In this document: one piece after another, positions 7,029 to 30,987 of the stretch
Layout: the number at the start of each line of letters is the position of its first letter
Position numbering within the stretch: the first letter of the stretch is position 1
Assembly (NCBI GenBank): GCA_963783575.1
Contig: CAWAOD010000011.1
Coordinates: forward strand, 32,001-96,000
Direction of reading: 5' to 3'
DNA length: 64,000 bases
DNA from: an uncultured Spirochaetota bacterium
GTDB lineage: Bacteria > Spirochaetota > Brevinematia > Brevinematales > JAOACQ01
Notes under the pieces: model-generated
Told to the model about the DNA's origin: nothing
The model's input: only the letters and a program-made list of their open reading frames with translations
Database searches by the model: none
Made by a program: the position numbers and the translations under genes

Positions 7029-7244
7029 TTTATTAATTTTCCATCTATTATATTTGAATGAATACAGGTTAATATTGTGGAAGCATTACGTCTTACTTTA
7101 AGTGTATATTCATTATAATTGTAACATATTATATTTGCAAAAAAATTTACCTGAAATGATCTCGGTACAGTCTACATATTTGAAGCAGATAGAGAACACA
7201 ACTATATTAACATATCATCTATTGAAAATAGAATCACCCTAGTA

Positions 7245-7435: not shown

Positions 7436-7600
7436 GAGATGGAATGGGAAGCCCTTCAGAAAGCTATAGATCAGGATTATCTTGTGAAGCAAGGAATGAT
7501 GATTGGACCTCTTGGAGAACTGAAGAAAGATAATGGAAGGACTATACTTCCAGCTGGTTTTAAGAGTGCAATAAAAAAATTGATAGGTAAATGATCAAGA

Positions 7601-7921
7601 GGGGTATCGCCAACGAAACCGACAAAAGTACCTCTAAGCTTGGACATGTTTCTGTAACTGATATTATTGCAATTAGTTAGAGATTATCTGCAGCAGTACC
7701 ATAAACCCTCGTTTTTGGGAAGAATTATATCTTATGGAAATTATAGCAATTTAAGCCTTATTTCAATCCCAAAACTAATACCATAATCTAATTAACGTAA
7801 TTACTCATATTTATTTTTTATGGAAAAAATAATATGTGTTAGCTTAAAGGTACAAATTTTTCATAGCACGGCCCTTTTATTCCTTTAGCGTGACTTTTGT
7901 CGGAAATGTTAGCGGTACCAC
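7601..7921. mobile_element. degenerate Tn3-family MITE (38-bp IRs, no ORF)
   Basis: ggggtatcgccaacgaaaccgacaaaagtacctctaag (7601-7638) has the GGGG...TAAG Tn3 IR form; partner at 7884-7921 matches 27/38; no TSD retained. Confidence 0.6.
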
Positions 7922-8202
7922 TAAATCTATTGATAAAACTTCATATTATCAAAATAACCTTGTGCTTGAGCTGCCATTTTAAATTTTATTTCACTATAAT
8001 AATATAAAAATAAATTGTACATATCACCCCTTATGGGTGATACGATCTCAGATCAACTATGTTATAAATTATATTACGAAATGAATTTACATCTGAAAAT
8101 TGTTGAATAAATATTCAGAATTTAATTTTCAACTCATTTTGAAATAATATAAGGAGTTAGAAATGAGTAAATCATATAGCATAGAATAAAGGAGGAAGAG
8201 TT

Positions 8203-8352
8203 ATGGAATTTTTAAAGGCTGGAATTCTCACAATTATCCTCATCGTTGTAATTGGCGTTGTAAATGCCTTTACGGTTGGTTTTGCAGAATTAAAAATTAC
8301 CGATCATAACAGCAATCCCGTGTCTGATGTTAGCATTCAACTTGTGAAGAAT
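8203..8352 (+). pseudogene. 5' half of a small secreted protein gene interrupted by the Tn3-family transposon
   Basis: RBS aggagg and signal-peptide-like N-terminus; the frame continues after the right TSD at 15272. Confidence 0.75.
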
Positions 8353-8433
8353 GGGGGGACCGCAGAATTCGGGAAAAATAGCACGCTAAGGAAAATTTAT
8401 AAACACTAACTTATACATGGTGAGCAATTTTTA

Positions 8434-11590: not shown

Positions 11591-12257
11591 ATGAAATGGC
11601 AAGAGGTAACCATGAGCCAATACCCCGAAAAATTACCCTCCACAGAAACCGATTCCCAGGACCAGGAACACGGCGACTGGTACGACGGGGAAACAATCAA
11701 ATATTTTTCCATTGATGAAGCGGACAAGATCCTCTCCTTGGTCTCCGAGTGGTATCAACTTATCTATCTCTTCCTGTTCGAAACAGCGACCCGTATCCAG
11801 GAGGCCAGAGCAGTCCGGATTCGGGACATCGATTTTCGAAACAACACTCTCCGTGCGAATACCCTTAAGCAAAGAAAAGAAGCCTTTCGGATTATTCCTA
11901 TCTCCGACCGGCTCAAATCAATGATCCTCATGCACCAGGTTGCTGACGGCCTGACTTCCGAAGATTTTGTTCTTGCAAGGAAGCCGGGTCTGAACCCCAT
12001 TTCACGGCAGGTGATCCATGCAAGACATGATCCGGCACTGTAAAAAACTCGGTATAGAGAGAGACAAGGTTTCCCCCCATACCTGGAGGCATACCAGGGC
12101 GATCCAGCTCCTTGAATCCGGAGAGGTGGACGTGGTGCGCCTGAAAGACTTTCTGGGTCATCGTAGCCTCGCTTCAATCCTCGTCTACGTCAAATTCTCA
12201 AACAAGCATGTAAACGAGGCCGTACAGAGGGCAAATTTGAAATTGGGTCTAAGATAG
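11591..12257 (+). pseudogene. tyrosine recombinase (TnpI-like role), frameshifted near 12020
   Basis: ETATRIQEA (catalytic R), SPHTWRH, LGH and Y motifs split over ORFs 11591-12043 and 12018-12257. Confidence 0.85.
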
Positions 12258-12268
12258 GAGAATAGACA

Positions 12269-15233
12269 ATGACTTATCAACCGATTTTATCCGATACGGA
12301 ACGCTCCGGGCTTCTCGCTTTTCCGGATAATCAGGACGACTTAATACGTTACTACACTTTTAATGAAACCGACCTGTCGCTGATCCGGCAGCGTAGGGGA
12401 AACCCAAACCGGATAGGATTTGCAGTACAATTAGCCCTATTCCGTTACCCTGGAGTTGCCTTATCCGACGAGTTGAATGTCACTGAGCCGGTCCTTCAGT
12501 GGATCGGTCAACAGATTGGCGTCGATCCTTCCGAGTGGCCGAATTACGCCCTCAGGGATCAGACTCGCCGAGAACACTACCAGGAACTTCGAACCTATCT
12601 CCTATTGGATACTTTGGGATAACTCATTTCCGGTATTTGGTGAGTGCAATAACTGATCTGGCCATGCAGACAGACAAGGGGTTACTGCTTGCTTCGCATA
12701 CGATGGATATCCTTCGGGAAAAGCGGATTATCCTACCGTCATTAAATGTGATCGAACGAATTTGTGTAAAAGCCATTGTGAACGTGAACCGGCGAATCTA
12801 CCGGATCTTGGTGGAACTATTGTCTCTATCTCAAAAAGAAAATCTTGACGGGCTGTTAAAGTTAAAGCCGGAAAGCAGCATTACCTGGCTGGTCTGGCTG
12901 AGGCAGTCACCGTTCAAACCGAATTCTTACCATATTCTGGAACACATCGAGAGGTTAAAAACCTTTCAGTCTTTTCCACTTCCGGAAGGGATAGGCCGTC
13001 TTATCCATCAAAATCGTCTCTTGAAGATCGCTCGGGAAGGTGCTCAAATGACTCCACAGGACCTGGCTAAATTCTCGGATGACAGGCGGTTTGCAACCCT
13101 TGTTGCGCTGGTCCTGGAAGGAACCGCCACGGTCACGGATGAGCTAATCGACCTCCATGACAGGGTGATGATGAAGCTCTTCAGTACCGCCAGGAACAAG
13201 CACAACAAGCATTTCCAAAGCCAGGGAAGGGCGATAAACGATAAAGTTAGGCTGTATTCGAAAATTGGCCATGCGATCCTGGAAGCCAAATATAAGGGTG
13301 AGGATCCTTATACTGCAATCGAGGCGGTCATCCCGTGGGATGATTTTACCCGAAGCGTCGTAGAGGCCGAGACTCTCGCGGAACCAGAAGCTTTCGATCA
13401 TCTGTATCTGATCGGCGAACAATTCAGCACCTTGCGCCGCTACACGCCGGAGTTACTGGAAGTCATTCAGTTCCGCGCTGTTCCGGCTGCTCAATGTGTT
13501 CTGGACGCGATCGAGGTTTAAAAGGGATGAACCGGAGTAATTCCCGGAGGATCCCGCTGGGCGCGACAACTGATTTTATTAAGCCCCGGTGGAAATCCCT
13601 GATTTTCACGGATGATGGGATAGACCGCCGTTTCTATGAAATATGCGCTCTTTCTGAATTGAAAAACTCCCTCAGGTCGGGAGACATATGGGTTAAAGGA
13701 TCCCGCCAGTTCAGGGACTTCGATGAATATCTGATGCCAATGGAGAAATTTCGGGTTCTTCAAAAGGCTGGAGAATTACCGATTGAAATCGAATCCAAAT
13801 TTGATAAATATATAAAAACCCGAATGGAATTATTGGAAGATCAACTATCCACGGTCAGCCGGTTAGCAGCGGTCAATGAACTGCCTGACGCGATTATTAC
13901 CGAATCGGGGCTTAAAATTACTCCGCAGGATACTGTGGTACCCGATGCTGCTCAGGTATTAATTGATCAGACTGGAATGTTGTTGCCTCGAATCAAGATC
14001 ACCGAACTGCTTATGGACGTCGACGACTGGACGGGATTCACCCGGTATTTCGTCCATTTAAAGGATGGAGAAGCCGCAAAAGACAGGACATTACTTCTGA
14101 CCGTAATCCTGGCCGATGCCATCAATTTAGGGCTGACAAAAATGGCTGAGTCATGCCCTGGTGTTACCTATTCAAAGTTATCCTGGCTTCAAGCTTGGCA
14201 CATTCGCGATGACACATATTCCGCGGCTTTGGCCGAACTGGTCAATGCGCAGTTCAGGCGCTCTTTTGCCGGGAACTGGGGGGATGGAACAACTTCTTCC
14301 TCAGATGGGCAGCGCTTCCGTGCCAGTGGGAAAGCGGAAACGAGCGGGCACATTAACCCTAAGTACGGAAGCGAACCGGGCAGGCTGTTTTATACTCACA
14401 TCTCCGATCAATACGTGCCGTTCAGCTCCAGGGTGGTCAATGTCGGTATCCGGGATTCCACTTGCGTGCTCGATGGGCTTCTCTATCATGAGTCGGATTT
14501 AAGGATCAAAGAGCACTATACAGATACTGCCGGTTTCACTGATCATGTATTCGCTCTCTTGCATTTACTCGGGTTTCGATTTGCACCAAGGATCCGCGAT
14601 CTGAAGGACACCAAATTGTATGTCCCGGATTATAATAAAAAATATGAGGCCCTGGGACCAATGATTGGCGGCAGCATTAACATTAAGCATATCCGCAACC
14701 ATTTGGATGATGTTCTTCGTCTGGCGGCATCGATCAAACATGGGACCGTAACCGCCTCGTTGATGATCCGTAAATTGGGTAGTTTTCCTCGCCAGAATGG
14801 GCTTGCAATTGCCCTCCGGGAGCTGGGCCGCATCGAGCGCACTCTATTTATACTCGATTGGCTCCAAAGTGTCGAATTAAGAAGGCGTGTTCACGCCGGC
14901 TTGAATAAGGGAGAAGCCCGGAATGCCTTGTCAAGGGCCGTTTTCTTCAACCGATTGGGAGAAATCCGCGATCGAAGTTTTGAACAGCAACGATATCGAG
15001 CAAGCGGCCTGAATCTTGTAACCGCTGCTATTGTGTTGTGGAATACTGTTTATCTTGAACGTGCAACAGATTCACTAATGGAAAACGGAGGCGCCGTAGA
15101 TAATGATTTACTTCAATACCTTTCTCCTCTGGGGTGGGAGCATATAAACCTGACCGGTGATTATATTTGGTCACAAGAAAAGAAGCTGGAGAAGGAAAAT
15201 TTACGGCCGCTCCGGACTACTGAGAAACCTTAG
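12269..15233 (+). pseudogene. tnpA: Tn3-family transposase, two frameshifts (about 12610 and 13517)
   Basis: [15 protein letters not shown]-terminus; [18 protein letters not shown] and [11 protein letters not shown] motifs across three ORFs. Confidence 0.95.
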
Positions 15234-15555: not shown

Positions 15556-15909
15556 TTGTATATGTCAAAAATAAAAATATTATCAACCATTCTGCTTTTG
15601 ACTATAAGCAGTATTTCCATCCTGAATGTACAAACTAATCCAAATTATAGCCGAAGCATGATACGTGTCACATTTAAATCTTTTCCTTATCTCGATGACC
15701 CAGCTGGAATTTCTTATAACAGTTATGGTCAACTTGGTGATTTATCTGCATATGTTTTACGTATTTACGCTAAGGCAGCTTTGAACCCCTATATTTCCGC
15801 AATGGAGCAGTCGGAAAAGATGCTCGGGGTCGGTAATATAAGTGGTGTGACAGTGTTACCAGACTCTAAAATATTTGGCAAAATTCTAGTAGTACTTGTT
15901 AAAAGATAA
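15556..15909 (+). CDS. hypothetical exported protein; its last codons come from the Tn7-like left end
   Basis: ggagg RBS, hydrophobic N-terminus; stop lies inside the transposon end. Confidence 0.45.
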   Translation: MYMSKIKILSTILLLTISSISILNVQTNPNYSRSMIRVTFKSFPYLDDPAGISYNSYGQLGDLSAYVLRIYAKAALNPYISAMEQSEKMLGVGNISGVTVLPDSKIFGKILVVLVKR

Positions 15910-16131
15910 AAAAGTTGGAAACTAGATGTCTTGATTTATCAATGTTTTTGGGTATTTTATTATTTTTAATCTAAATATAAAGTTGGAAACTATTAGAACT
16001 TCAACATCCAAATATACTCATAAAACGAATAAAAAAGTTGGAAACTTTACTCAATAAATTATTTAAAAGCCATAAACACTTAGCAGTTTCAAACTATTTT
16101 GTTCAGATCCCAACTTTTTTTTCTATCTACA
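15897..16131. repeat. Tn7-like left end with three spaced AGTTGGAAACT sites, followed by an opposing internal end
   Basis: agttggaaact near 15913, 15981 and 16036; inverted sites near 16085-16115 ending ...tctaca at 16131. Confidence 0.8.
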
Positions 16132-16894
16132 TCTCGCTATTTTTCCAACAAGACTAATTATACTCTGAAGTATGTTCATTTTCAGGTAACTAGGATCAAT
16201 ACCCTTCGTCTCCGGGTAGCCTATGGAATAGAGTGCTGCGATGAAAGGGACAATTGTTGACGGACAAAAAAGTTGGAAACTTTACTCAATAATTTTTTTA
16301 AAAGCCATAAACAGTTAGCAGTGGTAGGCTTTACAATATTGTTTTATCGCTATCTGGCCAGTCTGCTGCCGATCGGATTCAACAAAATAATACTAATGAA
16401 TTTTAAGAGATTTTTGAAACAGCTTAATATTATAGCACAATTAATTTGAAATCGTATCACCCATGAGGGGTGATACGGGTGAAATTTTGTATTAAATATA
16501 TGGTGTGGTGTTGAGATATATAATCGGCTGTAATTATGAAAACCTTGTAAAATCAATGCTATCTGCAACTTTATTTTTCATTCTACTACTTTTTTATCTG
16601 TGGACAAGTTAGTACCATATTTCTTCCCAGTTTAACTCACCGGGATTTTTTCGTACATTTTTCGAGTACATTTTTTAATATGAGACAACGAAACGTTTTC
16701 GACTACTTTAATTATAAAGTAATTCGGGGGTTTATTCACTTCAATTCAAGCTCTTCGGGCTGTTTGCCATAAACAATACTATTCATTTCAAGCCCCGGAA
16801 GATTATTGGGAATCAAATACCGGACTTAATTATTTCCGGTGAGGAAGTCGGATCGGCGGAAAAAGTTGCGCCGGTTAAGATCCTGGAGGCGTGG

Positions 16895-17149
16895 ATGAAG
16901 CGCACCGGGAAATACAAGGTTCTGAATAAAGAGAAAGATCCCCGGTATTCTTTGGACGGCTCAATTATGCAATATAACAGGAGCAGCGGGTTCTTCTGCT
17001 TTAACGGCGCACCGCTGCAGCCTATTAATGATAATGAAGCGGTGATTATGGGGCTGGGCAGGGAACTGGGTGATATAATACAAGCTACGAATACCATAGA
17101 TGGAGAGAAAATATTTTTCAACGGTTACGAGATGATAAAAGAGAAATAA
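16895..17149 (+). pseudogene. probable C-terminal gene fragment of unknown function
   Basis: short protein-like ORF without a convincing start, converging on 17158-18534. Confidence 0.3.
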
Positions 17150-17157
17150 AAACAAAT

Positions 17158-18534
17158 TTAAAAATTGTTTGTCTCAATACCATAATCCGCCGATGCGTCG
17201 ACTGAACTGTAAGAATAAGCGGTCAACCGGGAAAGGTCTGCTGAAATATAAAGACAGGTCAGCGATAAGGGAGCGAAAGAATATGTGATATTCGTGTTGC
17301 CGAGGAGCCCTCCAGCAAAATTTAAAGTCACGGAATAAGGGGCCGTTTTATTCCAGTTTACACAAAAAACGCTGGCATCGCCTGCCGTGTTATTATAAGC
17401 GTAAATGCGTATATCATTTTCAGGTTCTGCGCAGAGAACCATATTTGCGAGGACATGACTGGCGAATAATTCGTAGATATAATAAATCGGCCTGGGTCTC
17501 CTTACAGGACTGGAATCCAGGAAACCCATCACGCTTCCGACTTCGCAGATATCAAATGGAACTACCCCCTGCATTCCTGGCTGGGAAGTTGACGCTCCAA
17601 GAAGATCGGCCATCCACAATCCCCCTTCATAAGTTCCCATGGAAGCTTCGGCGGTAGCTTTATTAGGGCTGCCATCCGCGCAAACATTGCATTCTCCTAT
17701 GATTAAAGGCCGTGGCTGACCGGAGCTTTCTATAATGCTGATTACAGCGGATTCAATATATAAGATGTAATCGAATTGATTCGTTACAAAATCATATGTA
17801 GCTGACAGATCGTCTGAAGGGTAGTAGTGAACTGAAACAGCATCAACATATTGGCCGCAGTATTGTAAAAATGGTTTTATAAAACCATAGCTTTGATAAA
17901 CGCTTGGGCCGGCGATTTTAATCCATGGGTACCTGCCTTTTATCGCGACGGCGACATTGGTATAGCTGTCAATATAAACATTAAAGTCAGCCACATCGAT
18001 ATTATAATAATCATCAGGCTCAGCCCCTATTTCGACCCATGAGAGAGGATAATGCATTATATCGATATAATAAGAAAGTATATTAGTCGCCCTTGCAACC
18101 CTTGCGGCTACGTTTGGTAAGCTTGAAAACGGCAGTGAAAACCAGGGCGTCGCCCCGATATAGGAGCTGTAATAAGCCAGATTATCCATAAATTCCGAAT
18201 CAACACTGTTATCGGAATCCCAGTCCGCCCCCGCACGGAGAAATTTGACATTAAGCGGCTTTATCAACGATTCCGTTCCATAACTCGCCTTCAATGTCGA
18301 GAACATTTCTCCAAAAAAAAGCGGGTTAATAGTACTGATAACGGTCGAAGGTATGATAATTGAAAGGGTGTTTGTAACCTGATACGCCGGATACTTAGGC
18401 GCGGACGTTGAAGAAGAAGCCGAAGATCCCTGGGATGAAGAACCCTGAGAGGATAATCCGGGCATGGAAGCACAAGATGATATATAAATCGCTGGAACGA
18501 GCAGTACAAAAAGGAAGAAAAAGCGTATCTTCAT
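17158..18534 (-). CDS. lipoprotein with a clan-A-like glycoside hydrolase domain
   Basis: lipobox ISSC and Ser-rich linker; WVEIGAEPD, IKIAGP, DAVSVHYY, LIIGECN motifs; beta-rich C-terminus. Confidence 0.65.
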   Translation of the reverse strand: MKIRFFFLFVLLVPAIYISSCASMPGLSSQGSSSQGSSASSSTSAPKYPAYQVTNTLSIIIPSTVISTINPLFFGEMFSTLKASYGTESLIKPLNVKFLRAGADWDSDNSVDSEFMDNLAYYSSYIGATPWFSLPFSSLPNVAARVARATNILSYYIDIMHYPLSWVEIGAEPDDYYNIDVADFNVYIDSYTNVAVAIKGRYPWIKIAGPSVYQSYGFIKPFLQYCGQYVDAVSVHYYPSDDLSATYDFVTNQFDYILYIESAVISIIESSGQPRPLIIGECNVCADGSPNKATAEASMGTYEGGLWMADLLGASTSQPGMQGVVPFDICEVGSVMGFLDSSPVRRPRPIYYIYELFASHVLANMVLCAEPENDIRIYAYNNTAGDASVFCVNWNKTAPYSVTLNFAGGLLGNTNITYSFAPLSLTCLYISADLSRLTAYSYSSVDASADYGIETNNF

Positions 18535-18556
18535 AATTCCCCTCCGATCTTACTTA

Positions 18557-18598
18557 TTGACAAGATGAAATAGTTAATTTATAATTCTATTTCATCTT
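18557..18598 (+). promoter_or_regulatory. consensus sigma70 promoter overlapped by a perfect 12-bp inverted repeat
   Basis: TTGACA(18557)-17 nt-TATAAT(18580); aagatgaaatag 18562-18573 / ctatttcatctt 18587-18598. Confidence 0.7.
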
Positions 18599-18647
18599 AT
18601 AAAAATATTCAATAAAATCGCCAATTATAATTTTTAGGAGTTTTTTT

Positions 18648-19613
18648 ATGAAAAAAAACACAACTGGTTTTTGCTCCTTTTTATTATTTTACATAGTGAT
18701 TTCATCGGCGATTTTTTCAGGATGTTCGAATTCGCCAGGTTCTTCTTCCAGTTCTTCCAGTTCATCCAGTTCTTCAATCTCGGGATCTGTCTGGACTGCC
18801 GAAATAATTCTTCCTACCAACCGCTGGAATTCAATAACTTATGGAAATGGAACATTTGTCGCTGTCGGCCGTGATACAAATTTAGCTAATACTTCACCTG
18901 ACGGTATAAACTGGACAGCGCAAACCATGCCAACAGGTACTAGCAACTGGCAGTCAGTTACATTTGGAAACGGTACATTTGTCGCAATTGCACAATTACC
19001 AACGGCGGCCGCGACATCACCCGATGGTATAAACTGGACGGCCGGGACACTACCCGGCTCAGACTCTTGGCAGGCTGTAACATACGGTAACGGCGTTTTT
19101 GTCGCGGTTACCTGCGGTACATCGGCCGCGACTTCGCCCGACGGGATAAACTGGACGGCAAGGGCACTTCCCGGCTCACACAACTGGAAGGCAGTCACTT
19201 ACGGAAACGGCATTTTTGTCGCGGTTGCCTGCGAAGCAGGAGCGGCTACCTCACCCGATGGTATAAACTGGACGGCCGGGACACTACCCGGCTCAGACTC
19301 TTGGCAAGCGGTAGCATATGGAAACGGCATTTTTGTCGCAGTTGCCTACGGTACATCGGCCGCGACTTCGCCCGACGGGATAAACTGGACGGCAAGGGTT
19401 CTTCCCGGATTAGGTTCCTGGCAAGCAATAGCATACGGAAAGGGTGTTTTTGTTGCGGTCGGCTGCGGCATGGGAGCGGCTACCTCATCCGATGGAGAAA
19501 ACTGGGCTTTACACGCCATGCCGGACTATATTTACTGGAAATCCGTGGCCTATGGAAACGGAACATTCGTCGCCGTTCCGGACGGTAATGTAGTAGCGGC
19601 GATTTCACATTAG
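18648..19613 (+). CDS. lipoprotein with about 39-aa WD40/BNR-like beta-propeller repeats
   Basis: lipobox FSGC, poly-Ser linker, repeated W..V.YGNG.FVAV...ATSPDGINWT. Confidence 0.8.
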   Translation: MKKNTTGFCSFLLFYIVISSAIFSGCSNSPGSSSSSSSSSSSSISGSVWTAEIILPTNRWNSITYGNGTFVAVGRDTNLANTSPDGINWTAQTMPTGTSNWQSVTFGNGTFVAIAQLPTAAATSPDGINWTAGTLPGSDSWQAVTYGNGVFVAVTCGTSAATSPDGINWTARALPGSHNWKAVTYGNGIFVAVACEAGAATSPDGINWTAGTLPGSDSWQAVAYGNGIFVAVAYGTSAATSPDGINWTARVLPGLGSWQAIAYGKGVFVAVGCGMGAATSSDGENWALHAMPDYIYWKSVAYGNGTFVAVPDGNVVAAISH

Positions 19614-19666
19614 ATAAGGCGGTTCCTGAATTTCGATAAACTGATAGCCTAAAATTATATTTTGGA

Positions 19667-20734
19667 GTGTTTTTTATGGAAAAGTGCGGGGCTGGTTTTT
19701 GTGCAGTTCTGATAATATATGTCTTTATAATATACGGTGGAATTTTATCGGGATGTTCAAATTCGCCAGGATCTTCATCAAGTTCTTCCACCAGTTCTTC
19801 ATCAAGTTCTTCGTCCGTTATATCTATGCCTGGTTCGACCTGGACGCCTCAGACGCTTCCATGTTATGCCGGCTGGAGTTCTGTTACTTATGGCAATGGT
19901 ATTTTTGTCGCGGTTGCAAATGGGAGTTCAACAGCAGCAACCTCTCCCGACGGGATAAACTGGACGGCAAGAACAATTCCTGAATCTGCCAACTGGAGTT
20001 CGGTTACATACGGGAACGGCCTTTTCGTTGCTGTTGCCAATAGCAGTACATATATCGGGGTGACAAATGCGGCGGCGACATCGCCTGACGGGATAAACTG
20101 GACGGTACAGAAAATGCCCTTTCTTCCAGAATATGCCGGATGGATTTCAGTCGCGTACGGAAATGGTATTTTTGTCGCAGTTGTAAATGAATTTGGAGGC
20201 AATTTAGCGGCAATCTCCCCGGACGGGTCAAACTGGACGGCCCAGACACTTTCAACAAATACCGGGTGGAGTTCGGTCTTCTATGGGAACGGAATTTTTG
20301 TCGCTCTTGCCAATACCGGTACAGGTATGGGAAATATTACGGCAACCTCCCCGGACGGGTCAAACTGGACATCCCAGACGCTTCCGGCCTTTAACTCTTG
20401 GGCTTCGGGCGTCTACGGGAACGGTGTTTATTTAGCAATTGGAGGCAACCCGACCTGGACTATATCATCCAATGGTATAAACTGGATATCCCAAAACATT
20501 TCGGCAGTCAGCTTCTATCCGATAGATTACGGCTGGATATCCTTAGCATACGGGAACGGTATTTTTGTAAGTATTGCAGACGGAAGTTCGGAAGCGGTGA
20601 CTTCAACCGACGGGATAAGCTGGACGTTCCGGACTCTTCCAACAAGCGCCGACTGGACATCGGTTACATACGGGAACGGCAAATTTGTTGCGGTTGCAGA
20701 CGGAAGCTCATTGGCTGCGATATCTTCCAATTAA
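19667..20734 (+). CDS. paralogous beta-propeller repeat lipoprotein
   Basis: LSGCSNSPGSSSS N-terminus shared with the upstream gene; same repeat unit. Confidence 0.8.
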   Translation: MFFMEKCGAGFCAVLIIYVFIIYGGILSGCSNSPGSSSSSSTSSSSSSSSVISMPGSTWTPQTLPCYAGWSSVTYGNGIFVAVANGSSTAATSPDGINWTARTIPESANWSSVTYGNGLFVAVANSSTYIGVTNAAATSPDGINWTVQKMPFLPEYAGWISVAYGNGIFVAVVNEFGGNLAAISPDGSNWTAQTLSTNTGWSSVFYGNGIFVALANTGTGMGNITATSPDGSNWTSQTLPAFNSWASGVYGNGVYLAIGGNPTWTISSNGINWISQNISAVSFYPIDYGWISLAYGNGIFVSIADGSSEAVTSTDGISWTFRTLPTSADWTSVTYGNGKFVAVADGSSLAAISSN

Positions 20735-20814
20735 CATCTTGTTTTACGGCTGTTTGATAATAAATATTCTATTAATTAGAATTTTGTTAACAATCGTTAT
20801 TTTAGGGGTTTTAT

Positions 20815-22272
20815 ATGAAAACAAGATTTTCTGGCTTTTTTATTGCCCTTATTTTATTAGTGCTTTTGTCATGCTGTTCATTAGCGCAGAGTGGAGGAAG
20901 TGGAAGTAGCAGCAATATAGGCGGCAGCAGCAGCAGTATCACAACCAACAGCTTTAGCTCATACACTAATAGCGATGGTGTTATCTATACTAATACAGGG
21001 ACTTATTGGATTTTATCATCGGGCGCCATCACAAGCGGAAATATTACAATTCTATCAAATATCAATGGGATTCCTGTAAACAGCATTGGTGACTACGCAT
21101 TTTGCGTTTGTACTAGACTTACAAACATTAATATTCCTCCCAGTATTATAAGCATCGGTTATGAAGCATTTGCTTATTGTTCCGGTCTTAGCGGAATAAT
21201 CATACCCTCCGGCATAAAAAGCATCGGCAACAGCGCATTTTATTCCTGCAACAATCTTATAAATGCTGAAATACCGACCGGTGTTACTAACATCGGCGAT
21301 TACGCATTTGCGTACTGTTCAAGTCTTACAAGCATTACCATCCCATCAGGCGTTACAAGCATAGGTAATAACACATTTTGGAATTGCACCAACTTAACCG
21401 GGATAGTCATCCCCTCCAGTATTGCAAACATTGGCAGCTACGCATTTAATTCCTGCACCAGTCTTACAAATATTGTCATCCCCTCCGGCGTTGCCAGTAT
21501 AGGTAATTATGCGTTTACATACTGTTCAAGTCTTAGTGGAACAATAAACATTCCCTCCGGAGTCAAATATATCGGAGCCGGAACATTTCAGGAATGTTCC
21601 GGTTTAAATAGTGTCAACATTCCCTCTGGCGTTTTAAGCATCGGCGACTTCGCATTTTATGGATGTTCCGGCCTGACCGGTATAGCCATTCCATCCAGTG
21701 TTACAAGCATTGGAAACGAAGCATTTTCAGGATGTACCGGTTTTACCAATATCATCATCCCCACTGACGTTATGAGCATAGGTTACTGTGCATTTTTTGC
21801 ATGTTCAAACGCAACCGGCATAACCATCCCCTCAGCCGCCACAAATATTGAGTATGACGCATTCTGGGGATGTTCCGGTATGACTGGAACTATAATCATA
21901 CCTTCAGGCGTTAAAAATATCGCAGACGGAACATTCCAGGGATGTTCCGGTGTTACCGGCTTCATTATTTCCACCGGCGTTACAAGCATTGGCACGGAGG
22001 CTTTTTCTTCGTGCAGCGGCTTTCCCGGCATAACCATCCCATCTAGTGTTACTAACATCAACATGCTGGCATTTTTTGGCTGTTCAAGCCTGACCAGCGT
22101 CACTGTTCAAGAGACTACTCCTCCGGCTTTGCAATTAGGCTCAGGGGGAACAGCAGGGGCATTTAACAATTGCGCCGGTGGATTGCAGCTCCATGTCCCT
22201 TCTGGATGTGTTTCCGCTTATCAGACGGCGACCGGGTGGAGTTCGTATTCGAATATAATAGTTTCGCCTTAA
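20815..22272 (+). CDS. BspA-type leucine-rich-repeat surface lipoprotein
   Basis: many 23-aa IPSGVTSIG..AF..CS.LT repeats; signal peptide ending LSCC; Ser/Gly linker. Confidence 0.9.
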   Translation: MKTRFSGFFIALILLVLLSCCSLAQSGGSGSSSNIGGSSSSITTNSFSSYTNSDGVIYTNTGTYWILSSGAITSGNITILSNINGIPVNSIGDYAFCVCTRLTNINIPPSIISIGYEAFAYCSGLSGIIIPSGIKSIGNSAFYSCNNLINAEIPTGVTNIGDYAFAYCSSLTSITIPSGVTSIGNNTFWNCTNLTGIVIPSSIANIGSYAFNSCTSLTNIVIPSGVASIGNYAFTYCSSLSGTINIPSGVKYIGAGTFQECSGLNSVNIPSGVLSIGDFAFYGCSGLTGIAIPSSVTSIGNEAFSGCTGFTNIIIPTDVMSIGYCAFFACSNATGITIPSAATNIEYDAFWGCSGMTGTIIIPSGVKNIADGTFQGCSGVTGFIISTGVTSIGTEAFSSCSGFPGITIPSSVTNINMLAFFGCSSLTSVTVQETTPPALQLGSGGTAGAFNNCAGGLQLHVPSGCVSAYQTATGWSSYSNIIVSP

Positions 22273-22499
22273 ACAAATAAGTTATTACTCGAGTTTCGTG
22301 CCCCAATAAAAATAGGATAAATGTATATATATTAATAAGTTAAAATCTGAATGAAACATCAATTTCTGCTATAATATGTTGTAACCTAATCATGCAAAAA
22401 AGGAGAATTATCATGCTGTTGAGATTTAAAAATATAGTCTAATGGACAATTGATGATAAAGTTTTTACCGTAATAGTTGTTATTTTCATGTAAAACAAA

Positions 22500-22845
22500 T
22501 GTTGACGGATAAAATAGTTTTGCACTGGATCAGGCAAATATCAATCGATTATAAAGCAATTTCTTAATATCATGTGAAATAAAGTTGTGCACTGGTAAAT
22601 TCAGTAGAATGAATTAATATTAAAAAATCATCGGGCACTCTCATATACAATAAGTTAAGTTTCCTCGCGTAAAAGCCCATGAACCTTCAAAATTCAAGAT
22701 GACTAATTCAGTACACAACTTTTTTGTTCTGTAAACAACTTTTTTGGTCAGGGAACAACTTTTTTGTCCTCTGACATCAGTTCATAACTTTTTTATATAC
22801 TTCACAACTATCTTATTCAGTTCACAACTATTTTATAAACTCACA
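22500..22845. repeat. cluster of internal Tn7-type ends (one left-type, two right-type)
   Basis: TGTTGACGGATAAAATAGTT at 22500; three 20-bp-periodic acaacttttttg sites ending ...ctgaca at 22776; three ttca(c/t)aact sites ending ...ctcaca at 22845. Confidence 0.8.
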
Positions 22846-23839
22846 CCACCATTTTATCACTTGGTCTAATATGCCAACTTTCGACTTCTATTATCCAAGA
22901 GGGATTAATAATCTTATCATAGGGATTTTGAATAATAATTGGTTCATAATTTGGTGTTTCTAAATGAATTCTATCAACTAAATACAAAAAATATTGATCT
23001 TTTTTAAGTTTAGCAACATCTACCTCATTTCTTGACCAATAAAAATTTAGCCTTTCAGCAAATGATTTTACTTCAATATATTTGTCGATCAATTTTGATT
23101 CTTTATTTAGAAATGAAACAATATCATATCCAGCATTTACATCTATTTTACTGATGATTTTAATCTGATCAATAAAATTATGATCATTCAATCTTTGAAG
23201 TTCATAAGTTAGTACAAAATCTTCGGCATCATCTCCAAGTTCTGATTTGTATAATTGTAACTCTCTAAGACGTTCTAATGAAATAGTAGTTTTATTATTT
23301 TTAGAATAAAGTATTAAAATTGGAATGATTTCTTCTACAAAGTACTTAAGATACTGGATACTGATCAATAAAGTACTTGAAGTTCTATTATAAACAAAAA
23401 AACCGATACTAATTAATAAATTTCTTATTCCTGAAAAATCAAGGGGTATTAAATTCATACCAATAGAAGCCGTTGAAGCTATTACATCAAATTTAATCTT
23501 ATTAATATCAAGGAACCTATCAAGAACATTGTTATCAATGAATTTCTGAAATAATATCTTCAATAAAATTATTTTTAGATCATCATCATTTTTTTCTTGT
23601 GCATATAATCCAAATTCACTTAAATAAACTTCTCCATTCGAGTCTATGATCACCCAAGTTAAAAACTCAAGCAAATCTAACACACCTTTATAACAATAGG
23701 CTAGTTCTACTGATTGCCCTATACAATATCTTTCAATATCAACAACTTTCATTGATCGAGATGATAAAAGATATTTAAAGAGAAAAACAATAGATTCAAA
23801 AGAACCAAAATTATTGTTTTGTTGAATTTTGTGAAACAT
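22841..23839 (-). CDS. DUF3883 (NO VEIN C-terminal)-like PD-(D/E)XK nuclease domain protein
   Basis: LGDDAEDFV...GYDIVSF...YIEVKS...FYWSRNE. Confidence 0.75.
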   Translation of the reverse strand: MFHKIQQNNNFGSFESIVFLFKYLLSSRSMKVVDIERYCIGQSVELAYCYKGVLDLLEFLTWVIIDSNGEVYLSEFGLYAQEKNDDDLKIILLKILFQKFIDNNVLDRFLDINKIKFDVIASTASIGMNLIPLDFSGIRNLLISIGFFVYNRTSSTLLISIQYLKYFVEEIIPILILYSKNNKTTISLERLRELQLYKSELGDDAEDFVLTYELQRLNDHNFIDQIKIISKIDVNAGYDIVSFLNKESKLIDKYIEVKSFAERLNFYWSRNEVDVAKLKKDQYFLYLVDRIHLETPNYEPIIIQNPYDKIINPSWIIEVESWHIRPSDKMVV

Positions 23840-25783
23840 AATTGTTTATTAATGCCATAATATCATCCAAATCTGTATTTTCATTTAACCTATTAAATAA
23901 TGGTATTGGTTAATGTTCGATAATTTTTATCATACGCTCCTCTTTAAATATCAATCTATTATGGATTGTTCTATCTGTATTGTTATCTGATAGTAAATAA
24001 TAATAGTTTATTTTATCTCCTTTTTCTAGCCCATAACGATGGATACGATCTTTTGATTGAATGAAATGTGCAGCATTAAAAGTTCTTTCAATGTAAATTG
24101 CAGTATGACAAGCTTTATGTAATGAGATTGACTCTGAAATAGCGAAGGGATTTGCAATGATCACTTTAAATTTACTTTGCGGATTATGAAATTATTTAAC
24201 TATACTTTCACGCGTAGATTCAGAATTGTTATCATCATCTTGTTCAACAGGTGTAGCTCCATATAAAGTCTGATTCTCGATCCCAATAGATGATAAATAT
24301 TCTGATAGATCAAGAATATTTTTTATGAATATAGCCCAAACAATTATCTTCTCTCCTTTCTCAATCAATTTTTTTAACATCTCACCTAAATATATGAATT
24401 TCCTAGGTACTTCTAATTGATCATACGATATGATCTTTTGTATTATTAATGAATCATCAATAAAGGTTTCCATACTAATCTCTTCTTCATCAAAAAAAGT
24501 ATCTATTGGTTTTTGCAATAATGCTGGATTTGTTGATACTTGCATTAGTCTTATAAGACGAGCTTTTGTAAGAGCGTTCATTAGATTTTTTGTGGAATTT
24601 TTAGCTTTAAAAAATTCATATATTTATTTTCAATAAAGTTGTAGATTTCTCTTTGAACTGGCCCCATAGACACAATTATCGGTTCATTTTCAATAGGTTC
24701 GGGTATCTTTAAATCACTTTTACGAATACGTAAGAAAAAAGGGGAAATATTAGATAAAAGTTTTGATATACGAGGATCATTTGTATTTTGAGACATATCC
24801 TTAAGCTGATAAGGATAAAAATTTATAATATTTTTTGTTGGCCAAATAAATTGAAAAAGATTATCCATATCCTCATACCCATTTGGCGCAGGGGTACCGG
24901 TCAAAACAACCCTTGACTCACAATATTTTGATAAAGTCAACACAGAATTAGCAATTATTCCACCTTCAATATTTTTTATTTTGTGTGCTTCGTCAAGTAT
25001 GACCATTGTTCGATATTTTTTCAAGAAAAAAATTATATCATCTAATATTCCAGGTACGCCTAGATATGATAATAATGTTAATTCAGCAGGATAAGAAGAA
25101 TATAAGTGCTTTATACGTTCTGATTTAGGGACCCCTCCTGATATTCTCTTTGAGGATGGCTTATGACCAAAGCATTCAAAATATTCATTCTCCCAAGGTC
25201 CAAAAGAACTTAATGGTCCTATGATCAACAGTCTGTCAATCTTTTTCGGGTCATTATCAGGCAATGTTTTTAGATATGAATATGCTCCATAAACTATACT
25301 TGTCTTACCAGATCCTGGTACCGAAAAATTACAAGCATTTTGAGAGAAAGCCAAATGGTAAGATGATAGTAACTGAAGTGGATATAATCTTCTAGAGGGT
25401 AAATTTATGATTAGACTATCTGTAAACTTTTTAAATTGATTCAGTTGTAAATCGTCCAACTGATTGTTTCGAATATCAAAAGCTTGCTTGGAGAATAACT
25501 TAAAATTTTCTTCCTCTTGATAATAATCCCGAAGAATTTCCTTTATTGTTGACGTTGTACTTTCTGTAAAACCAAATTTTTGCAATAATTTCTGAATATT
25601 TTGTAAGACAACTTCTTTTTCCTCGGTTTCAAAAGGAATTTTAAGATGATCTTTTACTTCAATAACATGTAAATAATCCCGTAAATATATCAAAGATCTT
25701 CGATTCGATATAAGATTAATAATATCTCCTGAAAGAATATAAAGATTCTTCTGAGTATCAATATCAATTTCAATTACTGGCAC
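23808..25783 (-). pseudogene. SNF2-like SF2 helicase/ATPase, broken by one frameshift and two in-frame TAA codons
   Basis: SVPGSGKT, ILDEAH, LTGTP and QSKDRIHRYG motifs across ORFs 24581-25783, 24192-24581 and 23910-24164. Confidence 0.85.
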
Positions 25784-27070
25784 TTTTTCTTCTCTTTGCT
25801 ATCATTTTTTTAAACTCATAAGTAATACTATTAATTTCACATATTTTACTTTCTACATCAGAAGAATAAAAAGATTCGGTATCAGTATTTAAAGAATTCA
25901 ATGCATTTAATGCTTTTACTAGTAGTTCCATAGGTTGGTCTGATTTATTTAAGTCATCTAGTCTGCTTTTAGCTTTACCCAAATTCTCTTTAAGCTTATC
26001 TTCTACTAATTTTTCCCAATCCTCATCTCTACCTGAAAGTATTTTTGAAAGATCGGCTTTAGGGTTTTCTTCACGTAATTCTTCAATCGGTTTTTCTTGA
26101 ATTGTCTCAATATTATTCTTATGATTTTCTTCAAATTCTTTCCAAACTTCTTCGCGACTAAATATACTTTCATTTTTACTTGGTTTAGCTATGTTCCGAA
26201 ACTCTTTTCCTTCATACTGAGCACGAATATAATCATAACAGATTGATTTCAAAACGGATAAATCTAACTCACTATAGGGCCATTCGATAGGAGTACTTTT
26301 ATTCTCATATCGTTCCATATAACCACTTAGATTAACAAACTGGCCTTCTCTTTTATCAAGCCTTGTATAAATGCCTTCATATTTCAAATAGGAAAGATAA
26401 TCGTTCATCATTTCCATGATCTTTAACCATTCTTTTATTTGATTTTTGTCCGTGGCCATCATTTTGGCAATATCTGATTCTTCGAAACCAAATACTATCT
26501 TGAGATCTTTGCACCTTAAATATTTTTCGATTGGATTGTAATCAACCTTCTCGTCTTCCCCCATTTGATATTCGGTCTCTAATTTTACTATCTCTTTGGT
26601 TTCTGCTCCTTCAGGAAGTATTGCAGCGATAAAATATTTACAATTTTCAACATTATTATTATTTTTATTATGAATTTCTCTTGCAAGATATATTTTATTG
26701 AGAAGCATTGCTCTCCGATTTCCATCAATGATCATTCCGTCATTAGTGACAATACCATATATTCTCTGTCCATCTCTTATAAGACTATCCTCAGTGTTTT
26801 TATTTCTATCTAATTTCGAATCCCATAAGAATTTTTCAATGATCTTTTTATCATCATCTTTTTCAGCATCCAAAGGATGATCTTGTTTTTCAAATGATTT
26901 CACGAGGCTGCCAATACGACCGTTGTATTTATTATATATCAAATATTCAAGAGGGATTTTAAAAACATTAAAAGGACTAACACCTTTATAATTAATCCTG
27001 ACACCGGTCATGTATGGTGTATCATTTGCTTGAATTTCAGCCAGCTTTTTTACCCTGACTCTTTTGTCAT
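25770..27070 (-). CDS. ParB/Srx-like domain protein with a helical C-terminal region
   Basis: GQRIYGIVTNDGMIIDGNRR motif; own ggagg RBS and ATG at 27070, one base out of frame with the 739-aa ORF. Confidence 0.6.
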
Positions 27071-28692
27071 TTATTCCTCCTAATTCCATATTTGAAATAA
27101 TCAGTTTCATAGTATAATAACCAATTATGATTGATTTTGGAACAGGATAAGGGATATCAGTGATCATGATTTCTCTTAAATTTTCTTTATTTAAAAAAGA
27201 TATCTTTATAAATTTCTTTACTTCTTCTAGTAATTCATTTGGTCCCATTAAATTATTTTTCTTACGATCTTTTGCTATCATACAATATACTTCTTGAAAT
27301 TTACTAAAGTTATAATCCTTACAAAGGATTCTTTTGCTAAAGGAATTGATCAATTGAAATTCAGTGTCTGTGAAAGCTGATGATTCAATTTCTGGAGTAT
27401 ATTGTGTTGCTTTCTTTCCTTGACTTCGATGTATTTCGACATCCCATTTAAACACTTTATTTAAAAAATCAGAATGATGATTAGTTAATTCAACGCGAAA
27501 TGTTTTTAATTTCAAATAAGGGATATGATATTTGAACCTACTATTAGGCAATCTTGGTTTTTCTTTAGTTATTTTTAATGTTTTATAGTTTAGATTAATA
27601 AAATCTTGATCATTATATCTTTTAATTGGAATATACCTATCATTTGCCAACATAGTTTTTTCTTCTTGTACTATTGCAGATGCAAATGCGTAAGCCATTT
27701 TTGGAGGAACTGCATTACCAACTTGTTTATATTTAATACTGATGCTTTCACCATAGAATAAATAATCGATCGGGAAGCTCATTAAACTAGCCACTTCTCG
27801 AATTGTAGGAGCTCGATATTTACTAATATTAAATCCTAATATCATTGATTCTCTAGAACTAAATGTCAATGTTGCCATCACGGTTCTTGCAGGTTTGTTA
27901 GTGTTTTCAGGGAAAGACATCCTTCCCATATAACCCTTATCTTTTTTTAAGCCTTTCAGCTTTTCTCCATTGATATTTCGCAATCTCATGGATATAATGA
28001 TGGTCTGTCATATTTGATGATAAAATTGAAAGGTTTTTGTAATTAGGATCATTGACAATATTATCCAAATTTTGATTTGGATTACCTAAAGAATCAAGAA
28101 TCTTTTTTAAAGGAATAAGTTCTTGATCACATTGAATAATATATGAAGGTTTAGGAAATTCTCCACAAATAAACCGTTTTCTTCTGGATGGTACACCAAA
28201 ATATTCTGCATAATAAACATGACTGTTATCATTCTTAACAGTTAAAATAAAATTTCCATCACAGTCAAGTTCTGCAGCAGTATAGTTATCTTGAACGAAA
28301 TTTTGGATATTTGGAACATTTTCCATAATCCAATACTTTAAAATTGAATCTTTTTTATATTTCTTTCTTGCAATAATACGCAAAAATGCCTTGACAAGAC
28401 TGACTCCTTTAGATTTATCTGCTTTACCAGATTTATTAGAATTTGAAAAAGCGACACAAGGAGGGGAACCAATTATTATTTCAGAGTCAGGGATTATATC
28501 ATTAAATTCCTTTTCTGGAAGCATTGATAGTTTAACAACATCTCCCTGATAAGTATAACACGTAGGGTGATTAGCTCTATGAGTTTTTACAGCTGTTGGT
28601 GATATATCTATAGCCCAGATTATCTCGAAACCAGCATTTCGAAAACCCTCAGAAAAACCTCCAGCTCCACAAAAAAGATCAACTACCCTCAA
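27040..28692 (-). CDS. C5-cytosine DNA methyltransferase with a long C-terminal extension; frameshift in an A-run near 27945
   Basis: DLFCGAGG, GSPPC, MENV, PSRRKR, TIREVASLMSFP and QVGNAVPP motifs. Confidence 0.9.
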
Positions 28693-28713
28693 AGTATTTC
28701 TCCCAAGATGACA

Positions 28714-29166
28714 TCATCCATAAATTTTTTTTACTTGATCAATATACAACTGTATATTATTATTAATCTTACACTCCCACATCACCAATACTTTCCATCC
28801 TTTATCTTTGAGTTGTTGTATTTTAAAATTATCTCGTTCAACGTTTTTTTTAAACTTAGAAATCCAAAAATCTGTATGAGATTTTGGAATAGAAGGATTG
28901 CAAAAAGGACATCTGTGCCAAAAACAGCCATTTACAAATATGGCAATCTTTCTGCCAGGATAGCAAATATCTGGTTTACCCGGCACTTTTCCCCAATGCA
29001 ATCTATAACCTTTCATTTTATTAACAAAAAGGCTCTTTCTTAATATTATTTCTGGTTTAGTGTTTTTATTCTTTATTGTACTCATTATTCTTGATGTTAT
29101 TTCTTTTTCAGGAATAGGTGCTCGACCATCCCTTATGTATTTATCGCGCATTAAATTTAATATCAT
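28714..29166 (-). CDS. vsr: very short patch repair endonuclease
   Basis: SRIMSTIKNKNTKPE, GKPDI, FVNGCFWH, GWKVLVMWEC. Confidence 0.92.
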   Translation of the reverse strand: MILNLMRDKYIRDGRAPIPEKEITSRIMSTIKNKNTKPEIILRKSLFVNKMKGYRLHWGKVPGKPDICYPGRKIAIFVNGCFWHRCPFCNPSIPKSHTDFWISKFKKNVERDNFKIQQLKDKGWKVLVMWECKINNNIQLYIDQVKKIYG

Positions 29167-29381
29167 AAATATTCAACATCCTTTTGATTTTACATATGTA
29201 ATAAAAACTTCAAATTAAACAAAAAAATCATGTATCTTATTATTGATATTATAATTAGATTATAAATACTTGTCAATTTATTGTATCTCAACTTAATTAT
29301 TAAACGAATTTATAGAATTATTTTATGTCAGTTTAAGTTTAGTCGAATATGATATTAACTCTCCATATAATCACTATTTTA

Positions 29382-30983
29382 TTAAATTATAGAAAAATAA
29401 TTAATAATTATTTCCTCAATCCTTCTTCCCCAATCTTCAATACTTTGTCCTTTGACATGCTTAACAAATTTATATTTAAGACCTTCCTGCCTATTTAGAA
29501 AAGCAGTATTCCAGTGAAAATATTTATCTGCTAACATATTCAGATTATCAATAATTACATTACTATAATCATTAATTTCAAATCTGAATTGAAAAACCAA
29601 GGTAGATGCTGATTCACCATTTATTCGATTGATCTCAACAAGATAACATGTACCTATATCACTACCATCAATTCGGACAACAGTGCAGATCCTGCCGTCA
29701 CTGGAAATCCTTTTTTTACTATAAAGATTAATGAAAGTAATGGATATTTCCCAGTTTTTGTGTTTTTTCCGGATATAATCAATAACATCTAAAAAGTCTT
29801 CCAGACCTGGAAAAGTTTTATCCGCCAATCGGTCAAATGATAAAAACTCAATCGACCTGATCTGCCCGCCCCTTGTCCAATCCCTGACAGTTCCAATCAA
29901 TTCAGGCGATACATTTGAAGGTCCCTCTTGTGATGTTTTTCTGGCTTTATATTTATTATCCCGATCCCGTATTTTTATAACGATAGGTGCTCGTTTAAAA
30001 CTTGCTCCTAAATGACCGGATGTTACTTTGACAGTTTTTTCCCACCTGTTCGCGTCTTCTCCGGTCTCGTCAGGAAATATTTCCGGAAAACCATCAGAAA
30101 CAGATCCATTTTTATTATTTCCATCCGGGACATCTTCAAATACCGGTTGAATAAGATTAGGGGATTTGTATTTTATTTCACTGAAAGGATGCACTAACCG
30201 CTTTCTTTCAATTAGTTCTAATATAAGGAAAATGTCATTATATTTCAATCCCCGGTATCGCCAGATTTCACCAGGAATCACTGGAGGATCTGTTACAACA
30301 GGTATTCCATAAGAAAAACCTTTCCTAGGGTCACCGTATCTCCTTATTGCCTCAATATAAATGTTCCTATAAACAGAACACCAGGCATTATACCCTTTTT
30401 CATAAAAACGCAGCCAGGTAAAATATGAAATGGCATCATCCCTGAGTAAAATTTTAGGAAAATCAGGGGTTAATGTTATTTCCAGATTTTTATTATTAAT
30501 ATTATAAGATTCGATGAAAAAATCCAATCCGCTTGTTTCAAGTATCCGGTTTGCAAGAAGCCGGTAAGGAGTTAGAATTTTGCGGACTATTTCCATATAA
30601 GGAATATAATAATTAATTGAAGATATTTTAAAACTGCAAAGTAACTGGTTCCTGTAAAATGTATTATTATAAAATGGGTACAATTCCTTTGGAATATCTA
30701 ATCCTGAATTTTTGCTGAAATCAACATCACCTGGGAATATCAGAATTCCTCCTGAACCGGAAGCTTCAGATATAGCAGTTCCGTCCATATATTTACACCC
30801 TGTGCGAAGTATTGGCAAATAACCAATGGGTAGTCTTTCATCACTGAAACTCCCGTCCTGTCTTCTAAAGAGAACCCTGATATCCCATTGCTGCTCACTG
30901 TTCAAGACCGGTGAGCCAAGCCAGTATAATTCCACTTTATCACCAGGATCGAAATTCCAAGGAGTTATCCTAAAACCACTCAT
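29382..30983 (-). CDS. tnsE: TnsE-like Tn7 target-selection protein
   Basis: 533 aa, directly after tnsD; C-terminal R...VVRI...YLVEI.R...SASTL...W...VKH pattern resembles the TnsE C-terminal domain (by eye). Confidence 0.65.
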   Translation of the reverse strand: MSGFRITPWNFDPGDKVELYWLGSPVLNSEQQWDIRVLFRRQDGSFSDERLPIGYLPILRTGCKYMDGTAISEASGSGGILIFPGDVDFSKNSGLDIPKELYPFYNNTFYRNQLLCSFKISSINYYIPYMEIVRKILTPYRLLANRILETSGLDFFIESYNINNKNLEITLTPDFPKILLRDDAISYFTWLRFYEKGYNAWCSVYRNIYIEAIRRYGDPRKGFSYGIPVVTDPPVIPGEIWRYRGLKYNDIFLILELIERKRLVHPFSEIKYKSPNLIQPVFEDVPDGNNKNGSVSDGFPEIFPDETGEDANRWEKTVKVTSGHLGASFKRAPIVIKIRDRDNKYKARKTSQEGPSNVSPELIGTVRDWTRGGQIRSIEFLSFDRLADKTFPGLEDFLDVIDYIRKKHKNWEISITFINLYSKKRISSDGRICTVVRIDGSDIGTCYLVEINRINGESASTLVFQFRFEINDYSNVIIDNLNMLADKYFHWNTAFLNRQEGLKYKFVKHVKGQSIEDWGRRIEEIIINYFSII

Positions 30984-30987
30984 TTTC

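Follow-up and report, generated by a model that had tools for sequence, protein, structure and literature searches.

Tn7 and related TnsD-type transposons carry the genes tnsA, tnsB, tnsC and tnsD beside their right end, are bounded by TGT/ACA termini and a 5-bp target-site duplication (TSD), have three dispersed TnsB sites in the left end and contiguous sites in the right end, and insert in a specific orientation at the 3′ end of a conserved gene. According to the parts of two reports drawn on here (PMC8649781, PMC11014353), multiple left (L) and right (R) ends arise when an element inserts within or next to one already in place; it is also suggested there that sub-combinations of these ends can leave as new elements. 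In composite transposons, the outermost ends of two insertion sequence (IS) copies move the DNA located between them. Here we describe a Tn7-like island located at 15897-37221 in a 64,000-nucleotide (nt) stretch of DNA, hereafter the window, that corresponds to positions 32,001 to 96,000 of contig CAWAOD010000011.1 in the genome of an uncultured Spirochaetota bacterium (GCA_963783575.1, named G000 in this study; a draft of 18 contigs, 89.85% complete, 4.91 Mb, 37% GC). All coordinates are those of the window unless a contig is named. The island contains seven Tn7-like ends, designated La (15897), Rb (16131), Lc (16255), Ld (22500), Re (22776), Rf (22845) and Rg (37221). In our view it is probably a composite in which the five inner ends are likely fossils left by three or more earlier elements related to it, and it was likely moved whole by its outermost ends, La and Rg, both of the site family here called alpha.

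The island shares with Tn7 and other TnsD-type elements all the features listed above. It differs from Tn7 in its attachment (att) site, which is the stop codon of an rlmD-like gene instead of glmS; in the number of right-end sites, three compared with the four given for Tn7 in the part of PMC8649781 used here; in the presence of a 533-amino-acid (aa) gene without Pfam family where tnsE would be; and in a nonsense codon in tnsB. With the islands described in the portion of PMC11014353 available to us it has in common the presence of several L and R ends in a single att-site island, the internal and proximal insertions, and the ability of outer ends to carry inner material along. In those islands complementary duplications trace the insertions, whereas here only the outer pair has one; furthermore, two site families are mixed in the present island, a fragment of a former target gene lies between two of its ends, and the host belongs to an uncultured-type lineage unrelated to Acinetobacter. 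The resemblance to composite transposons is that the outermost ends would move the DNA between two copies, represented here by a 123-bp fragment. On the other hand, the ends are Tn7-like, with a heteromeric TnsA/TnsB transposase and target selectors instead of an IS, and no more than 123 bp separates the inner ends, which face each other. The capture model is already established, and this locus is a new example of it in another lineage that leaves the known model unchanged.

The region 15897-37221 (21,325 bp) is one Tn7-like transposon with cognate ends. It is flanked by identical copies of the TSD GTACT at 15892-15896 and at 37222-37226. The outer left end La (15897-16046, + strand) has the terminus TGTTAAAA and three sites (15904-15923, 15972-15991 and 16027-16046), all of them GTTGGAAACT. 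The outer right end Rg (37155-37221, − strand) has the terminus TGTAGAAA and three contiguous GGAAACT sites, and both ends are 85% complementary across 27 nt. Since the TSD-bearing ends have identical GGAAACT sites, a cognate pair explains the move of the outer element.

Rg is located at the stop codon of a gene for an rlmD/RumA-like (uracil-5)-methyltransferase (37209-38537, − strand; Pfam), the 3′ end of which is the att site. This gene was found in 11 of the 12 genomes of the family that were compared. In one relative, G003, a different element (TnsC 47% and TnsD 55% identical) is inserted at the orthologue's stop codon with the same orientation, and at eight of the nine relatives' loci inspected the site was empty, with no end. 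Judging from these comparisons, such site- and orientation-specific insertion at the rlmD-like gene is the outcome expected of a TnsD-directed pathway, and the gene represents an additional att site in a poorly studied lineage. A search of 15000-38000 against Rfam at gathering thresholds gave no match, and a tRNA search of the window found none; this leaves no known RNA among the ends and the dispersed repeat U described below, and excludes a tRNA as the att site.

The sequence directly documents at least one capture: an apparently foreign gene fragment is sealed between Rb and Lc inside the TSD-bounded element. This 123-bp fragment (16132-16254, − strand) derives from a gene of the adenylate-cyclase/AAA-ATPase/TPR type, and its edges lie exactly at the termini of Rb and Lc. 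It shows 75% nt identity to part of a gene in contig C2 of relative G001 (G001:C2), the homology spanning from the Rb terminus to the Lc terminus, and its translation matches residues 345-386 of the G001 protein (>881 aa) with 33 of 42 aa identical (E 6e-20). No close homologue of the fragment was found in its own genome, in which the best homologue of the G001 protein is 33% identical.

The two ends that enclose the fragment are of the alpha type. The right-type end Rb (16085-16131, − strand) is decayed, with sites at 16085-16104 and 16105-16124 and a terminus, TGTAGATA, similar to the TGTAGAAA of Rg. The left-type end Lc (16255-16322, + strand) has the terminus TGTTGACG and a single site at 16262-16281, and its positions 16260-16322 repeat 16025-16087, that is, La site 3 and the next 41 bp, at 92% identity. 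The 235-bp stretch 15897-16131 consists of inverted L and R ends, with no gene and no open reading frame (ORF) of at least 60 aa. Neither this unit (flanks GTACT vs TCTCG) nor 16255-37221 carries a duplication of its own, and for this reason two alpha insertions would have hit the cyclase/ATPase gene 123 bp apart in another genomic context. In the simplest reading, Lc lost its sites 2 and 3 by recombination, and the La-Rb unit would then be a deletion derivative of the same alpha lineage. Every scenario that we constructed requires a later transposition that used La together with a right end located past Lc and took the fragment along. Because a piece of the former target gene is sealed between two ends, the outer ends would have taken along both inner elements and flanking DNA when moving to a new site, and the locus offers a clean natural footprint of the growth of Tn7-like islands.

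The motif TGT-N13-AGTT occurs 13 times in the window, in comparison with 5.97 ± 2.49 times in shuffled sequences (2 of 100 shuffles reached 13), and seven of these matches are the ends at 15897 (+), 16131 (−), 16255 (+), 22500 (+), 22776 (−), 22845 (−) and 37221 (−). Each end, three of left type and four of right type, starts an array of predicted 20-bp TnsB-type sites of the form AYAAAAWAGTTG plus 7 nt. The sites of right-type ends are contiguous, with 20-bp spacing (Rg 37155/37175/37195, Rf 22779/22799/22819, Re 22710/22730/22750 and Rb 16085/16105), whereas those of left-type ends are dispersed (La 15904/15972/16027 and Ld 22507/22574, with 16262 alone in Lc); this predicted arrangement is the asymmetric layout typical of Tn7-like ends. 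Two site families were distinguished: alpha sites (La, Rb, Lc and Rg) are GTTGGAAACT (GGAAACT) at La, Lc and Rg and decayed at Rb, and beta sites (Ld, Re and Rf) are GTTGTGnACT-like (GTGnACT-like). The TGT terminus is intact in all inner ends.

Weight matrices were used to score these sites across the genome. A matrix built from the six outer sites alone gave 26.2 bits for 16262, 19.4 for 16105 and 19.0 for 16085, and 19 bits or more were reached at one single other site in the 4.91-Mb genome; the sites at 22500-22845 scored poorly with it (3.7-15.9 bits). A second matrix, from six sites of the intact element of relative G166, gave six matches of at least 18 bits genome-wide, five of them within 22480-22850, and 18 matches of at least 16 bits, six of them in that same interval. 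Values with this matrix were 18.0 and 22.2 bits for Ld, 18.2 and 18.7 for Re, and 17.9 and 18.9 for Rf. When all 17 sites were used, 21 matches of at least 17 bits were obtained, 17 of them in the element (a circular result for those 17), and no second cluster of sites was found in the whole 4.9-Mb genome. The terminal pattern TGT-N8-AAAAWAGTTK had nine matches in the genome, seven of which are the named ends, with five for the reversed control. An earlier note on this DNA had placed seven ends at these coordinates, and they are borne out as arrays of 20-bp sites and not AT-rich noise. The TnsB-site variants that it quoted (GGAAACT, GTGAACT, GTGCACT and GTTCCCT) are correct, and the matrix scan that it proposed picks out the inner ends almost uniquely in the genome with both the outer-site and the G166 matrices. 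Their scores are unlike background, and matching Tn7-like ends exist in G166, G004 and G003.

The 5-bp flanks of the left-type ends are GTACT (La), ACAAT (Lc) and ACAAA (Ld), and those of the right-type ends TCTCG (Rb), TCAGT (Re), CCACC (Rf) and GTACT (Rg). The flanks match in one of the 12 L/R pairs (15897/37221) and the other 11 show no duplication, in agreement with the lack of matching TSDs at inner ends described previously; complementary duplications marking separate insertions were not found in the window beyond that one pair of the 12. A Russian-doll pairing of La/Rg, Lc/Rf and Ld/Re was rejected, as the inner pairs have no duplication. A simple tandem array with R-TSD-L joints at the att site was also rejected, since no such joint is present and non-att DNA lies between the ends.

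The three beta ends are clustered at 22500-22845. Ld (22500-22593, + strand; left-type) shares the terminus TGTTGACG with Lc and has sites at 22507-22526 (TTGCACT) and 22574-22593 (GTGCACT), and the right-type ends Re (22710-22776, − strand; terminus TGTCAGA) and Rf (22779-22845, − strand; terminus TGTGAGT) have three contiguous sites each. Over 48 nt, Re shares 90% identity with an end in G003:C3; the Re terminus lies 2 bp from the innermost Rf site. Rf is 80% identical in register to Rg, and its terminus provides the stop codon of a NOV_C-domain gene (22841-23839, − strand). Ld interrupts a copy of the host repeat U, the remainder of which was found beside no right end, and the flanks of Ld, Re and Rf are all different. 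Within the 277 bp of 22500-22776 (flanks ACAAA vs TCAGT) there is no gene and no ORF of at least 60 aa, and for this stretch a chimera formed from two beta elements by deletion or recombination is more likely than a mobile unit. No further copies of 15897-16131 or 22500-22776 were detected as site clusters in the 4.9-Mb genome, and in DNA searches with both mini-elements the relatives matched in the site arrays alone. Apparent mini-elements without duplications can thus be recombination chimeras, and this affects the automatic calling of boundaries and cargo of Tn7-like elements, which would here cut at 16255, 22500 or 22845.

These results modify part of what had been proposed in the earlier note. 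It had described 15897-16131 and 22500-22776 as empty mini-elements; both are indeed devoid of genes, and the second fits a chimera better than a mobile unit. The unit 16255-22776, thought to bracket the lipoprotein genes of the cargo, is not supported, as it joins an alpha to a beta end, has no TSD and relies on the single site of Lc. As for the idea that cargo was captured through cross-recognised ends, the 123-bp fragment supports the capture itself, and cross-recognition is not needed given the identical sites of La and Rg.

Ends of the same kinds were found in relatives. The element of G166 is intact (18.5 kb, TSD GCGGG), with left sites GTGCAYT and right sites GTGCCCT, which are beta-type, and it has no internal array. 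Beta-type sites were found in three relatives, namely at the ends of this G166 element, in orphan ends of G004 and in G003:C3. Locus L025 (G003:C3, 10565-10660) combines an La-like terminus that has a single site with an Re-like end, which begins 7 bp farther on in the same orientation and has three sites that are phased and partly decayed. The pair is next to chromosomal genes for AcrB and LTXXQ, and the other border of this island was not found in the 18 kb examined. Immediately after the tns module of G003 there is also an R-type end, composed of three contiguous sites, for which no left partner was seen before the contig end. In locus L026 (G004:C13, 6260-12510), the 3′ end of an FtsJ/S4 (TlyA-like) gene is occupied by Tn7-like ends in the order R-L, R-L, L, L. 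The cargo of this locus comprises a hydrolase gene and others, with no tns genes in the 14-kb stretch examined, and it includes a 1.2-kb alpha-type mini-element with one hydrolase gene (7203-8378) flanked by AGATG/AAATG, a duplication in 4 of 5 positions. Locus L066 (G001:C1, 7623-12460) is a stretch of about 4.9 kb between inverted cognate arrays with GCGTAAT sites; its ORF sizes are unlike those of tnsABC, G001 has no TnsC match at E 1e-10, and the adjoining gene looks TlyA-like from its C-terminal sequence.

A scan for the shared terminus TGTTGACGGAYAAAAWAGTT gave 10 genome and 20 metagenome loci. By eye, several of them (L049, L052, L054, L060, L062 and L063 among others) show Tn7-like site arrays from other lineages, and many appear to be coding DNA that matches by chance. 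No homologue of the Tns proteins of the window was found in these 30 loci at E 1e-5, and no parent element was found among them. The terminus TGTTGACGGAYAAAAWAGTT is not lineage-specific.

The composite origin that we favour can be reconstructed as follows. Two alpha units, either two copies of the element or one copy and a deletion derivative of it, would have inserted 123 bp apart and in the same orientation into the cyclase/ATPase gene of a former host. TnsB would then have paired La with Rg, and the TnsD pathway would have set the whole composite at the rlmD-like stop codon. Sites 2 and 3 of Lc may have been lost through recombination between site 1 and site 3. Beta elements would have entered the cargo at three places, one of them in repeat U and another inside a third element ending at Rf, and deletion or recombination between two directly oriented beta copies would have fused Ld to Re, resulting in the 277-bp apparent mini-element whose flanks never matched.

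Several points weigh against this reconstruction. Neither a parent element nor a sister copy of the composite turned up, and the order proposed here is therefore tentative. Target immunity of the Tn7 type speaks against two alpha insertions separated by 123 bp; in the portion of Correa et al. 2024 (PMC11014353) considered here, proximal and internal insertions of Tn6022 are reported despite target immunity. Furthermore, cargo block 1 (16323-22499) looks native, with paralogues at 64-68% and repeat U at 88-91% identity, the trapped fragment looks foreign, and the history given above does not account for the entry of block 1 into the cargo. The chimeric nature of 22500-22776 is read from its flanks alone. 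It has to be added that the assembly is a draft in 18 contigs with 89.85% completeness, and that the stop codon in tnsB may be a sequencing error.

A different history would be tandem growth in situ, in which an older composite, extending from La to a right end now lost, was already present at the rlmD site when a second alpha element, from a lost left end to Rg, was added; a single deletion would then have eliminated the right end of the older element, the GTACT copy in the middle and the left end of the newer one, and the 21 kb need never have moved as a unit. Repeated use of the att site leaves the same TSD at both outer borders, and the sharp change in GC at 22.8 kb could mark the deletion joint. 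The partnerless R-type end that directly follows the tns module of G003 and the R-L, R-L, L, L arrays at another att gene in G004 are also in line with this history. However, the joint 22845/22846 lies exactly at the Rf terminus, which fits a transposition junction better than a random deletion, GTACT does not follow Rf, and one event more is needed than for the insertion of a single composite. We consider tandem growth unlikely on balance, and composite transposition would still be needed under it to account for Rb, the fragment and Lc, so that the order of events would change and not the principle.

That the inner arrays are functional, either as internal TnsB-binding arrays for target immunity, as regulators of neighbouring genes or as alternative ends in use, appears very improbable. 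An R-type array likewise follows the tns module in G003, all inner ends retain their TGT terminus, and TnsB sites give target immunity in Tn7, as stated in the part of PMC11014353 used here. Against these parallels, the arrays adjacent to the cargo are beta-type and not cognate with the functional ends, which carry alpha sites, the intact G166 relative has no such internal array, Lc retains one site and Rb two decayed ones, the positions differ between the window and G003, and no alternative pair of ends has a duplication. Hardly any weight can be given to the notion that AT-rich DNA produced the inner motifs by chance or that the nested layout is an assembly chimera. The genome has 37% GC, the window contains six other TGT-N13-AGTT matches, and the draft includes two contigs of deviant GC; chance was nevertheless tested and rejected, as independent matrices single out the sites genome-wide, the arrays combine the 20-bp phasing of right ends with the dispersed spacing of left ends, and homologous ends are present in three other genomes. 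With regard to misassembly, the repeats involved (at most 63 nt, 92% identical) are too short and diverged for misjoins. A more speculative idea, which we regard as improbable, is that beta-type elements home to resident end arrays and stack their own end just inside them in the same orientation, islands growing by end-directed parasitism. Same-orientation stacking of ends was seen twice, in Re/Rf of the window (2 bp apart) and in G003:C3, where the Re-like end begins 7 bp past the first site of the La-like end.

The transposition module of the island (29382-37090, − strand) was delimited from Pfam matches, the tnsB translation and the 7pik match, and it adjoins the att-proximal right end Rg. 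It comprises, all on the − strand, tnsA (36398-37090; TnsA_N PF08722, 1.6e-16), tnsB (34091-36256; Mu-transpos_C), tnsC (32575-34098; AAA_22/TniB, 4e-20), tnsD (30988-32571; TnsD, 6.5e-50, and TniQ, 2.4e-20) and the conserved 533-aa gene, p533 (29382-30983). The C-terminal part of TnsB (34091-35434) matches the TnsB of Tn7 (7pik) with E 1.3e-90. The tnsB gene is one 722-codon frame with a single in-frame TAA at codon 268 (35453-35455), where the homologue of G003 has a tyrosine-rich stretch; this TAA could be a real nonsense mutation or a draft or sequencing error. Neither a second tns set nor a beta transposase was found in the assembly, in which tnsB is single copy. With a nonsense codon in its only tnsB, the island is probably no longer mobile. 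The separate mobilisation of sub-modules suggested in the earlier note is unlikely at present, given this TAA, the single tns set, the lack of a beta transposase and the lack of further mini-element copies.

The TnsC protein is about 39% identical to plasmid-borne Tn7-like TnsC proteins, and among 401 sampled genomes of the phylum, TnsC of the same clade was detected in 6. A TnsC-based pattern search of genome contigs gave 34 pattern matches, none of which was confirmed. Homologues of p533 lie directly after tnsD in G166 (34% identity) and G200 (30%), and in G003 this position is taken by a short TniQ that is not a p533 homologue. The p533 protein is possibly a second target selector of its clade.

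The cargo is divided into two blocks. According to Pfam, block 1 includes a GH-like lipoprotein (17158-18534, − strand) and a BspA-type leucine-rich repeat protein (20815-22272), with two repeat lipoproteins (18648-19613 and 19667-20734) located between them. Its gene cassettes have paralogues (64-68% nt identity) elsewhere in the same genome, and its short repeats also recur there. Block 2 (22846-29380, − strand; Pfam) encodes the NOV_C-domain protein, an SNF2 helicase-like protein, a C5 DNA methyltransferase and Vsr. The C5 DNA methyltransferase gene (25770-28692) is apparently split into the overlapping frames 27937-28692 and 25770-27989. The GC content is 40-51% in block 1 (16.5-22.4 kb), 25-31% in block 2 (22.8-29.4 kb) and 36-40% in the tns module, the shift being sharp at the beta ends.

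Repeat U is a dispersed repeat of about 190 bp, with copies 88-91% identical, that was found in one of the 12 family genomes, that of the host itself. In the window it is present at about 16410-16601, with a diverged left half, and at 22411-22499, where it is cut by Ld; three more copies are located on contig C14 of G000 (98365-98549, 99005-99290 and 152578-152691). It was also considered that the two borders of block 1 might each hold one complementary half of a split repeat U; this possibility was weakened when relaxed alignment revealed the full diverged copy at about 16410-16601. Two short repeats were also observed in this part of the island: 16425-16475 is 84-94% identical to 8022-8071 of the window and to C14:81616-81663, and 16644-16726 is 89% identical to C5:81030-81112.

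Regarding the assembly as a whole, contigs C7 and C17 of G000 have 52% and 49% GC, respectively, vs 36-39% in the remainder, and contamination or foreign replicons are possible. Just left of the island, the region 11591-15233 encodes a 150-aa integrase fragment and a Tn3-family transposase that is broken into a DUF4158 part and a DDE part, with GC near 50%. This region is a second mobile-element relic beside the att site.

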